From UHGV virus genome UHGV-0193351: 16,304 nucleotides of DNA; one strand, given 5' to 3'. Both the position numbers and the translations under genes were made by a program. Of the stretch, positions 6,254 to 8,145 are shown one piece after another. A model generated the notes under the pieces. That model was not told where the DNA came from. It searched no databases and was given only the letters and a program-made list of their open reading frames with translations. Source of the stretch: a virus. Position 1 is the stretch's first letter. Each line of letters opens with the position of its first letter.

Positions 6254-6279
6254 TAAAACAAAAACCCGCCGAGGCGGGT
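6254..6279 (-). terminator. rho-independent terminator ending the AT-rich two-gene cassette
   Basis: Minus strand ACCCGCC-tc-GGCGGGT hairpin followed by TTTTTGTTTT, immediately after the stop of the 6291-7436 gene. Hairpin is nearly identical to the one at 8121-8145. Confidence 0.6.
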
Positions 6280-6290
6280 ATGAATGAGAA

Positions 6291-7436
6291 TTATTTTTGT
6301 TTTATGGTAAATGAAATAACATTGTCAGAATGAATCATATCTGATTCTTTAAATCGTGTAATTGCAGATAACTCATTTAAAGGAAGAGCAAAGATATCAG
6401 TTAACTCAGTTACCTTTATGATTGAATGCTTATCAAGAAGTAAAAGTAACTTATTAAGTAACTCAGGCTCTTCTTTTGGGATTGCATCATCTAACGGCTC
6501 CCTACGATGGAATGGCGCTAATTGCTTAAATATATAGCTTTTCTGATTATCGCTAATTAACTTAAGGCTATGACTCCTCATGGCAATACTACCGATAGAT
6601 GTAATCCAACGTAGTTTTAATCGTTCTAACGCTGATAAATTTGGACTATAAAATTCACGCCCGAAAGTCGTGGCTGGCATTAAAAAGCTGGAGGCAAAAT
6701 AATCGGCCTGCAACTCCACTAGGTCGAATAATTCTTTATCATTCAGGTAGTCATCCTCCACTGCCCTATGCATAATTAAATGGCCAAGTTCATGAGCAAG
6801 ACTAAATCGCATGCGAACAGCCGTCTTCGAGCTATCTAACATAATTAAAGGCCGCCCATTATGCCAGAACGAAAAGGCATCAACTTTCTCACCAGAAGGT
6901 AAATGAGAAACCACGATTCCTTTATTTTCAACAAGTCTAGTTAAATTGAGTATTGGACCATCACCTAACCCCCAAAAACGCCTTAATTGGGTGGACATAT
7001 CCTCAATATCAGATAGAGACAGAACCTCAAAATCAATAATATCGAATTCAGGCAGAACCACATCTGGTAATTGAGCATATTTTAGACATTCATCCAATAT
7101 TAATGCCGCCCAACGCCCACGTGTTTTCCCTGTAACTCGAGCCTTTTTGGTCGCAGTTGAACGACTTCTAAAATGAATCGCCCCCTCCAGAGATGGAGAA
7201 GCACTGGAGGCTAAGAAAAATCGTTCTGGAAATCCTAACACCTTGGCTATTGCAGAAAGTGTATCAGCAGAGGGAGACTTCAACCCCTTCTCAAATGACG
7301 AAATAGCTTGTCTTGAAATATTGAGCACTCTGGCAAGTTCAGCCATCGTCAACCCTTTTGCCTCTCTTGCCTCCTCAAGGCGACGAGGATTAAACGATTT
7401 ATCAGTAAATGGTGTTTGTGCGATATTCATGCTCAT
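6291..7436 (-). CDS. fused XRE-family HTH + ImmA/IrrE (COG2856/M78-like) zinc metallopeptidase domain protein
   Basis: 381 aa. N-terminal HTH (LTMAELARVLNISRQAISSFEKG), central HEXXH zinc-binding motif (HELGHLIMH) in a region matching the ImmA/IrrE peptidase fold, then a C-terminal extension of about 150 aa. AT-rich codon usage. Start ATG overlaps the stop of the upstream gene (ATGA at 7433-7436). Confidence 0.8.
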   Translation of the reverse strand: MSMNIAQTPFTDKSFNPRRLEEAREAKGLTMAELARVLNISRQAISSFEKGLKSPSADTLSAIAKVLGFPERFFLASSASPSLEGAIHFRSRSTATKKARVTGKTRGRWAALILDECLKYAQLPDVVLPEFDIIDFEVLSLSDIEDMSTQLRRFWGLGDGPILNLTRLVENKGIVVSHLPSGEKVDAFSFWHNGRPLIMLDSSKTAVRMRFSLAHELGHLIMHRAVEDDYLNDKELFDLVELQADYFASSFLMPATTFGREFYSPNLSALERLKLRWITSIGSIAMRSHSLKLISDNQKSYIFKQLAPFHRREPLDDAIPKEEPELLNKLLLLLDKHSIIKVTELTDIFALPLNELSAITRFKESDMIHSDNVISFTIKQK

Positions 7437-8047
7437 GATTGCTGTGATTTAATTATTTGTTCGGTAAGAATCTTGATTTTATCTTCAATCTCAGAATCCA
7501 CATTTTCTGCTTCAACTTCTACCATCGTCATAATTGGTAAAGACTCAGTATAAAGAATCCCGTAATTATCCGAAGAAGGAACAGTTAAATTCAGTTTGGA
7601 CAAGTGCTGATTACTGCCATCATGTAACATATAAACATGTCCACCAGACGCTCTCCCATCCAGGGAGTCGGCATTTTCATCCCCAAAATTCAATTCATAA
7701 TTTTGATTAGCGTAAACAGCTCTATACAATGCCTGCTTAGGAAGTGGCGCATTACCCGATAAATGATGTGCCGTCATTTTCCAGTTGTTCGAGTGAATCG
7801 CAATGTGTTTACAATTTTTAGCAGCATTGCTACCGACTTCAAAATCCAGCCCCACACGCTTAGCCGCATTCTCAAGCAATGCATCGGCATAAAACCAGCG
7901 CAAATATGACTGTGCTTGAGCCCAAAAAGAACCAAACTCTTTTGCCTTCATATGCGAATGAAGATAAGCCTGTGCTAACGCGATCGAAAGCTCTTTGCGG
8001 CACTCCTTGTCATATGCTTCTAACAACTGTTGAGATAAATTCTGCAT
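7433..8047 (-). CDS. hypothetical protein, first gene of the AT-rich two-gene cassette (candidate toxin/effector)
   Basis: 204-aa ORF, ATG at 8045-8047 with AAGGA Shine-Dalgarno about 10 nt upstream; translationally coupled to the HTH-peptidase gene. No family recognised. Contains an R-x4-H string (RASGGH), only weakly reminiscent of HEPN RNase motifs. AT-rich. Confidence 0.65.
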   Translation of the reverse strand: MQNLSQQLLEAYDKECRKELSIALAQAYLHSHMKAKEFGSFWAQAQSYLRWFYADALLENAAKRVGLDFEVGSNAAKNCKHIAIHSNNWKMTAHHLSGNAPLPKQALYRAVYANQNYELNFGDENADSLDGRASGGHVYMLHDGSNQHLSKLNLTVPSSDNYGILYTESLPIMTMVEVEAENVDSEIEDKIKILTEQIIKSQQS

Positions 8048-8072
8048 GACCGTAATATCCTTGTTGTTTTGG

Positions 8073-8112
8073 TGTCAACCATATTTCCATTTAACATAGA
8101 CTTTGTCAACCA
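8073..8112 (-). promoter_or_regulatory. promoter/operator region of the cassette: direct repeat TGTCAACCA x2, each holding a TTGACA -35 hexamer on the minus strand
   Basis: Minus strand reads TGGTTGACA-N22-TGGTTGACA upstream of the 204-aa gene. The distal TTGACA is followed after 17 nt by AAATAT, a weak -10. Exact promoter is uncertain. Confidence 0.4.
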
Positions 8113-8120
8113 GATAGATG

Positions 8121-8145
8121 CTAGAAAAACCCGCCGAAGCGGGTT
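8121..8145 (-). terminator. rho-independent terminator downstream of hok
   Basis: Minus strand AACCCGC-ttcg-GCGGGTT hairpin followed by a TTTTTCT tract (overlapping the stem end). Hairpin sequence is nearly identical to the terminator at 6254-6279. Confidence 0.6.

Follow-up and report, generated by a model that had tools for sequence, protein, structure and literature searches.

What kind of module is the AT-rich two-gene cassette that lies next to hok in the virus genome UHGV-0193351, and does it belong to a known system? The window, by which we mean the whole stretch of DNA analysed (16,304 nucleotides (nt), to which all positions refer), had received a first-pass annotation that presented the pair as a candidate toxin–antitoxin (TA) or abortive-infection module, with RosmerTA as a likely relative and a pairing that was possibly novel. 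Judged by sequence-level criteria, the pair belongs to RosmerTA, which has already been named and catalogued; the module is real but not novel. Its two genes, hereafter rmrT and rmrA, and the catalytic motif of the second are located as follows:

7433-8047, minus strand: rmrT, an open reading frame (ORF) of 204 amino acids (aa), predicted toxin
6291-7436, minus strand: rmrA, an ORF of 381 aa, predicted antitoxin/regulator
6780-6794, minus strand: HELGH zinc-binding/catalytic motif of RmrA (aa 215-219), invariant in the alignment

The assignment combines an RmrA profile match on a protein carrying helix-turn-helix (HTH) and M78 domains, an adjacent and co-oriented gene whose product matches RmrT profiles, and an organization as a two-gene operon. 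The fusion of an XRE HTH to an HEXXH peptidase of the ImmA/IrrE type, read earlier from the string HELGHLIMH, is borne out: the string is present, and RmrA matches both Pfam HTH_3 (2.4e-16; aa 20-73, within an XRE HTH at aa 18-73, nt 7218-7385) and Pfam Peptidase_M78 (9.7e-19; aa 170-287, nt 6576-6929) with scores above the Pfam cut-offs, the M78 zinc peptidase domain being followed by an uncharacterised C-terminal region. The PADLOC RmrA model PDLC03947 matches aa 11-380 at an E value of 5.5e-102, 13 more RmrA models match as well, and the protein is 31% identical over 354 aa to the verified RmrA of Escherichia coli OLC-716 (E 4e-41). Across 11 RmrA sequences covering 31-100% identity, including the verified one, both HELGHL and the downstream motif E..QA(D/N)xFA..FL(M/L)P are invariant.

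The product of the first gene is more divergent. RmrT gives a full-length match to PHROG 35814, which has no assigned function, and no match in Pfam, NCBIfam or PDB sequence searches; neither a HigB/RelE match (Pfam, PADLOC) nor an HTH was found in it. Four PADLOC RmrT models match the protein itself weakly (PDLC03933, E 7.5e-10; 03934, 6e-8; 03937, 1.5e-4; 03940, 2e-3). Among 1.84 billion cluster representatives, 78 clusters of related proteins of ~200 aa were retrieved by a profile search. Since all 56 of the 56 aligned relatives match PDLC03933 (best 1.8e-53), the 204-aa protein can be placed as a divergent branch of the catalogued RmrT superfamily (here PDLC03933/34/37/38/40) and the pair as a RosmerTA. 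The two genes also travel together: the toxin-first pair is adjacent in every one of the 28 related loci that have DNA downstream of the toxin gene, and the RmrT/RmrA identities fall in step, from 100/100 down to 25/38%. Profile searches of genome contigs with two alignments returned no relative. Altogether, the PADLOC profiles, the pairing conserved in 28/28 loci and an insertion that brings its own promoter and terminator (see below) support the earlier suggestion of a RosmerTA-like TA or abortive-infection module.

The architecture of the cassette is that of a compact unit. The ORF list and the sequence agree on two coupled minus-strand genes, as first proposed, the TGA of rmrT and the ATG of rmrA overlapping by 4 nt as ATGA (7433-7436). 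The AT-rich island that had been noticed by eye is confirmed by calculation: GC content is 0.396 in the cassette (6280-8120) versus 0.487 in the remaining window (0.520 for 4000-6250 and 0.454 for 8150-10400 in the flanks), and no other stretch of 1841 base pairs (bp) in the window is as low, with smaller AT-rich patches at 600-1400, 8600-9000 and 9400-10000. The remaining features are:

8048-8120, minus strand: cassette control region, with TGGTTGACA direct repeats, a -35 element, TGn and AAATAT, and a ribosome-binding site
6254-6279, minus strand: intrinsic terminator immediately 3' of the rmrA stop, second copy of the flanking repeat (terminator scan, fold)
8121-8145, minus strand: hokD terminator hairpin, upstream insertion boundary and one copy of the ~45-nt direct repeat (fold; single copy in the empty site)
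6231-6253, minus strand: downstream junction TCTGGTTTACAA, the phage's own sequence as in the empty site (seen when the empty site is aligned to the two junctions)

The hairpins had been taken as a nearly identical pair bracketing, and belonging to, an inserted unit. Their resemblance holds: the 20-mers AAAAACCCGCCGAGGCGGGT (6260-6279) and AAAAACCCGCCGAAGCGGGT (8125-8144) are 95% identical, with the consensus AAAAACCCGCCGA(G/A)GCGGGT, and both fold on the minus strand as a GC hairpin followed by a T run (-12.1 kcal/mol, z -3.15, for the first; -13.9 kcal/mol, z -2.65, for the second), the consensus terminator scan calling only one of the two, at 6264-6279. Their joint ownership does not hold, the upstream hairpin being the hokD terminator. 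The repeat is longer than first described, ~45 nt, made up of the terminator plus TCTGGTT(G/T)ACAA. The downstream hairpin is another matter: in every homologous cassette rmrA is followed immediately by a hairpin and a T run whose sequence differs from cassette to cassette, and so a terminator is part of the module. The unit is self-contained: besides rmrT and the translationally coupled rmrA, it has a promoter region and a terminator of its own.

That the cassette is an insertion can be read from genomes that lack it. An artificial empty site was built by joining 5850-6279 to 8146-8500 and matched against 5426 complete E. coli genomes. It was found in one piece, at ~97% identity, in 3403 of them, where orf92 and the DUF968 gene come directly after hokD; the cassette is present in 41 (~0.8%), always full length and at least 99.7% identical, none of the copies being truncated or solo. 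Among the carriers is strain LF82, whose copy (99.7% identical) lies in prophage Tritos. The insertion measures 1866 bp and is bounded by the imperfect ~45-nt direct repeat, the terminator plus TCTGGTTTACAA occurring once in the empty site (L003:640-810) and twice around the cassette in the junction alignment. Note that TGGTTTACA, at 6238-6246 inside TCTGGTTTACAA, is one mismatch away from the cassette repeat TGGTTGACA; TCTGGTTTACAA may be a recombination substrate for cassette gain or loss, or the remnant of an older cassette.

Across E. coli and IMG/VR loci (L009-L020), the identity of the cassette proteins is 100%, against a range of 84 to 100% for the products of the neighbouring hok, orf92 and DUF968 genes. 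As the cassette proteins stay identical where their neighbours differ by up to 16%, the cassette is younger or more mobile than its surroundings, and an invariant cassette in varying flanks is the pattern expected of a module that would have spread by recombination among mosaic lambdoid prophages. Against the Salmonella-type copy, the ratio of nonsynonymous to synonymous substitution rates (dN/dS) is 0.10 for rmrT and 0.09 for rmrA; both genes are under purifying selection. More distant pairs occupy diverse sites: the nin region of a further lambdoid prophage (L006), a position behind the primase in an element of another kind (L007), one end of a Mu-like prophage (L027) and, in L004 (4689-9464), a lambda-like prophage with O, P and N homologues, the interval between the S24-peptidase cI gene and the N antiterminator gene, which is the slot of rexAB in lambda. 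The RmrT sequence of that last locus is annotated as coming from Yersinia rochesterensis.

How, then, is the module expressed? In RNA-seq data from an LF82 lysogen, LF82_281 (hypothetical) and LF82_280 (ImmA/IrrE) stand 30x and 14x, respectively, above the Tritos background and are listed as morons (PMC9928086). The near-identical LF82 copy is transcribed in the lysogen, which is direct evidence of expression of its own (PMC9928086). The control region contains two direct repeats of TGGTTGACA, at 8104-8112 and 8073-8081, 31 bp apart, which are the only exact copies in the 16-kb window. After the perfect -35 element (TTGACA) that the first provides come a spacer of 17 nt, a TGn and AAATAT; the second is placed around the predicted start site, and an AAGGA ribosome-binding site precedes the rmrT ATG by 10 nt. 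An alignment of the control regions of eight cassettes, the most distant at 51% RmrT identity, shows the first repeat (TGGTTGACAAA) to be invariant in 8/8 and the second (TGGTTGACA) to be identical in seven, with one substitution in the remaining cassette (L025); a central ATGnAAA block is nearly invariant (in L025, T replaces the first A), and the sequence around these blocks is unalignable. Synonymous sites are saturated in three of the aligned cassettes (L004, L006 and L007), with a proportion of synonymous differences (pS) of 0.77-0.87. An operator made of inverted repeats was rejected, as no inverted repeats occur in 8048-8120, and so was a second promoter starting from the second TTGACA, since no conserved -10 follows the second repeat. 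The TGGTTGACA repeats are likely to form the promoter together with a candidate operator pair for the RmrA HTH.

What RmrT might do is suggested by its predicted structure. AlphaFold run on nine close sequences gave an unusable model (predicted local distance difference test score (pLDDT) 38), and we used the 56-sequence alignment, from which AlphaFold2 produced an alpha/beta model with a pLDDT of 87.4 and a predicted template modelling score (pTM) of 0.76. The model comprises a long helix (aa 14-64), three strands (68-95), a helix (107-116), three further strands (136-169) and a C-terminal helix (184-203). This order of helix, three strands, helix and more strands weakly resembles the restriction-endonuclease fold, with no significant Foldseek match. 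As regards helix and strand order, the model may recall PD-(D/E)xK proteins such as SwaI, NaeI, Hjc, EcoRV and RecU; it differs from them at the catalytic positions. The residues conserved in the family are Y28, N74, N78, H81, T92, H94, R/K104, R109, N116, H142 and E181, and the standard metal site is absent because N78 and T92-x-H94 occupy the places of D and (D/E)xK. Acidic and devoid of transmembrane or hydrophobic segments (its highest Kyte-Doolittle score over 19 residues is 0.70), RmrT is a soluble protein by prediction. With low confidence, the model points to a cytoplasmic toxin that would act on nucleic acid through a variant nuclease-like fold.

Two other toxin types were considered and rejected. 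The weak R-x4-H string to which the first-pass annotation had drawn attention is not conserved: the only such string, RASGGH, occupies aa 132-137 in a variable loop, where even homologues of 65-92% identity do not keep the Arg. A HEPN ribonuclease was rejected on this ground and on that of the alpha/beta model. A membrane-depolarising toxin like the RmrT of phage Kita was rejected for want of a hydrophobic segment in RmrT.

Putting these elements together, we consider it probable that the cassette is a RosmerTA-type TA moron of a lambdoid prophage, with RmrA as antitoxin and RmrT as abortive-infection toxin. RmrA would neutralise RmrT and would also repress the operon, its N-terminal XRE HTH sitting on the two TGGTTGACA repeats that cover the -35 element and the start site. 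Upon infection by another phage, RmrA would be lost or inactivated, either by turnover or by M78 self-cleavage of its HTH, a regulatory step that Ernits et al. suggested for Rosmer-like systems (PMC10440598), and the freed RmrT would arrest or kill the cell, aborting the infection. ClpXP might help to restrain the toxin, by analogy with other RosmerTA systems. The most speculative step is the molecular one, in which cytoplasmic RmrT would act on nucleic acid via a restriction-endonuclease-like fold with a non-canonical N78...T92-x-H94 site.

Further support for this scheme comes from other members of the family. Protection against phage has been shown for RosmerTA, and a delta-rmrA construct proved impossible to transform (Millman preprint); the RosmerTA of phage Kita confers narrow-spectrum defence, against Bas54/Bas59 (PMC10440598); transposon sequencing (Tn-seq) finds rmrA essential in three Pectobacteriaceae, the need for clpX being confined to RosmerTA-carrying strains (PMC13566846); and a prophage TA of E. 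coli E101 makes clpP essential (Rousset 2021), an observation quoted in the Pectobacteriaceae paper as an effect of RmrT (PMC13566846). Because of these family-level results on delta-rmrA, on rmrA and clpX essentiality and on clpP in E101, the roles of RmrA as antitoxin, of RmrT as toxin and of ClpXP as a restraint are the best-supported parts of the scheme. For the present toxin subfamily, we infer both toxicity and phage protection by analogy; that the E. coli genomes have neither truncated nor solo copies is an indirect point for a toxin that RmrA would neutralise. Note that the window pair is unlikely to be the E101 clpP-linked TA itself, as the protein accessions differ and the window RmrT has Q46; the E101 TA is probably of the OLC-716 type, because its T46S suppressor fits an OLC-716-type toxin (T46 by residue count).

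Several observations weigh against this reading. (i) The match of the window RmrT to its best RmrT model is weak and partial, covering aa 47-161, and the verified E. coli OLC-716 RmrT, which matches PDLC03935/03932, is unrelated to it in sequence. (ii) The conserved polar residues of RmrT do not include a D...(D/E)xK metal site, nor is there a conserved acidic pair. (iii) The first TGGTTGACA repeat may simply be a strong -35 element. (iv) In the related PD-lambda-2 system, the HTH-peptidase protein is itself toxic (PMC9519451), and for this reason the roles are not guaranteed in this subfamily. (v) We found no toxicity or defence experiment on this RmrT subfamily in the literature; beyond the LF82 moron listing, nothing on it was found, and searches by protein accessions and PHROG id yielded no paper.

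Among the alternatives, the one that survives best is a plain addiction or stabilisation TA, which would keep the prophage or the segment in place and give no protection against other phages. The layout, with overlapping genes and an HTH in the second, is the classical type II one, the neighbouring hok/sok is another post-segregational killer, the 41 E. coli copies are all intact, and RosmerTA homologues tested in Streptococcus thermophilus were ineffective against most phages (PMC12322248). We nonetheless regard this explanation as unlikely: family members do defend against phage when tested (Millman preprint; PMC10440598), and the cassette is found in typical moron/defence slots of several unrelated elements. 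Addiction and defence are, moreover, not mutually exclusive.

Unlikelier still is a protease-activated effector, in which RmrA would be no inhibitor but a sensor protease, activating the effector by a cut in a latent RmrT or in its own HTH, in the manner of CapP/CapH and of protease–effector defence modules. The catalytic motifs of the M78 domain are invariant, and in searches of the PDB RmrA matches the CapP protease (7t5t, E 1.8e-5), the PADLOC capP and capH models matching too; the HTH cleavage proposed by Ernits et al. (PMC10440598) points in the same direction, and linked protease–effector modules activated by proteolysis have been described (PMC12642450). The failure to transform delta-rmrA and the essentiality of rmrA in Tn-seq (PMC13566846), however, fit an antitoxin and not an activator; nor is any cleavage site in RmrT known.

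Finally, control of the prophage life cycle, with the HTH-peptidase as an ImmA/IrrE-type anti-repressor or repressor and the 204-aa protein as an accessory regulator, is the weakest rival and highly improbable, because thousands of genomes (the 3403 above) have the same phage backbone but lack the cassette and the pair occurs in unrelated elements, at very different positions; the derepression of mobile elements by ImmA-type peptidases (PMC10440598), the L004 pair directly beside a cI repressor gene and the PHROG 2439 label 'transcriptional regulator', which we counted for a regulatory reading of the pair, are offset by the carrier prophage's own cI-like, Cro/YdaS and YdaT genes and by the expression of the cassette as a moron in the lysogen (PMC9928086).

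Within the preferred reading of a RosmerTA-type defence moron, a bolder proposal can be made, which we put forward tentatively and do not expect to hold in full. The RmrT superfamily PDLC03933/34/37/38/40, that is, at least five RmrT toxin models, would be an unrecognised toxin class built on a restriction-endonuclease-like scaffold, in which conserved Asn, Thr, His and Arg residues replace the metal site, perhaps making it a metal-independent nuclease or a non-catalytic nucleic-acid binder; the operon would be controlled by RmrA bound to direct TGGTTGACA repeats three helical turns apart. If true, an arrangement in direct rather than inverted repeats would be uncommon for the operator of an XRE protein. 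What the locus adds to the catalogue is this hint at the toxin's structure, together with a control region built on conserved direct repeats; it reveals no new kind of system and will not surprise a specialist. It offers a well-delimited, natively expressed RosmerTA in a tractable setting, the Tritos prophage of the Crohn's-associated E. coli LF82, with a toxin from a RosmerTA branch so far without experimental study, and the model, the family-invariant residues and the promoter/operator repeats are concrete targets for mutagenesis.

As for the surroundings, the gene order is DnaC-like, DUF1627, DUF4406, Ead/Ea22, hokD/sok, cassette, orf92, DUF968, RusA, Q, which confirms the position beside hok in the nin region; the carrier is a lambdoid (Rac/Qin-like) prophage, and the cassette is a moron between hokD and the orf92-DUF968-RusA-Q block. 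Directly upstream of it lies a complete hok/mok/sok type I TA locus (8214-8539, minus strand), identified by Pfam HOK_GEF for the 70-aa mok/hok frame and by Rfam sok at 8364-8539, so that two TA modules stand side by side. Transcription of hokD in LF82, at 3792x background, far exceeds that of every other Tritos gene (PMC9928086). Farther upstream, a 171-aa ORF with no Pfam match (8929-9444, minus strand) adjoins an AT-rich, strongly GC-skewed patch (8600-9000, GC 0.375); this region varies among cassette carriers, avian pathogenic E. coli (APEC) E19035, for example, having QueH there.

Other parts of the window and of the related loci deserve mention. Between the Q antiterminator and holin genes (3061-3586, minus strand), Rfam places three tRNA genes (3340-3413, 3430-3503 and 3514-3586) and the small RNA (sRNA) STnc100 (3061-3260), and at the right end of the window the DicF antisense sRNA gene (16107-16158, plus strand; 76.7 bits), as in Qin/Rac-type prophages. 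A 202-aa DUF2441 protein is encoded just after Rz (550-1158, minus strand), in an AT-rich patch (GC 0.38-0.40 over 600-1400), and its gene may be a second moron. In the lambdoid prophage L006, whose cassette is 72% identical, a Ser/Thr protein kinase gene and then a PP2C phosphatase gene come right after Q (L006:11412-12603), which may be another defence or moron pair. In two metagenomic loci (L030:326-4084 and L031), a distant RmrT–RmrA pair (25/38%) stands beside a 509-aa protein with faint HD-domain matches and a 241-aa protein, an arrangement that suggests a small defence island.

How does the pair compare with the systems it resembles? ImmR/ImmA of ICEBs1, IrrE/DdrO of Deinococcus and CapH/CapP of CBASS (cyclic-oligonucleotide-based anti-phage signalling systems) likewise pair an M78 peptidase functionally with an XRE HTH, and RmrA has sequence matches to CapP (7t5t) and to the ICEBs1 Xre regulator (7t8i). 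In these systems, however, HTH repressor and peptidase are encoded apart and act to derepress the element or operon, whereas the window pair has both domains in a single 381-aa protein, whose 204-aa partner has no HTH; the pair is for this reason no ImmR/ImmA switch. PD-lambda-2 (Vassallo et al. 2022) is closer in layout, with an Xre-HTH/peptidase fusion downstream of a toxin-like gene on E. coli mobile elements (PMC9519451), but it has three genes, the first HigB-like and the third P4-antitoxin-like, and the fusion protein itself is toxic (PMC9519451). The window pair is not PD-lambda-2, because it consists of two genes between terminators with no HigB-like component; the PADLOC model PD-Lambda-2_B matches RmrA only at E 0.002, against 5.5e-102 for the RmrA model.

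Within RosmerTA, the Gordonia phage Kita system (RmrT-D5/RmrA-D25, Ernits et al. 2023) is likewise phage-borne and built around an ImmA-type antitoxin hub (PMC10440598). Its toxin, which carries a membrane region at the C terminus, is a membrane depolariser, whereas the window RmrT, being acidic and devoid of a hydrophobic segment, would not act in this way. As to the founding example from E. coli OLC-716 (Millman et al. 2022), the toxins are unrelated: BLASTP gave E values above 2 with the verified 239-aa RmrT, hhalign a probability of 0.1, and the window toxin matches other RmrT models (03933/34/37/38/40 versus 03935/03932). The two systems nevertheless share the plan of the family, a toxin-first two-gene operon whose second gene encodes an XRE HTH joined to an M78 (ImmA/IrrE, COG2856) antitoxin with the same catalytic motifs.

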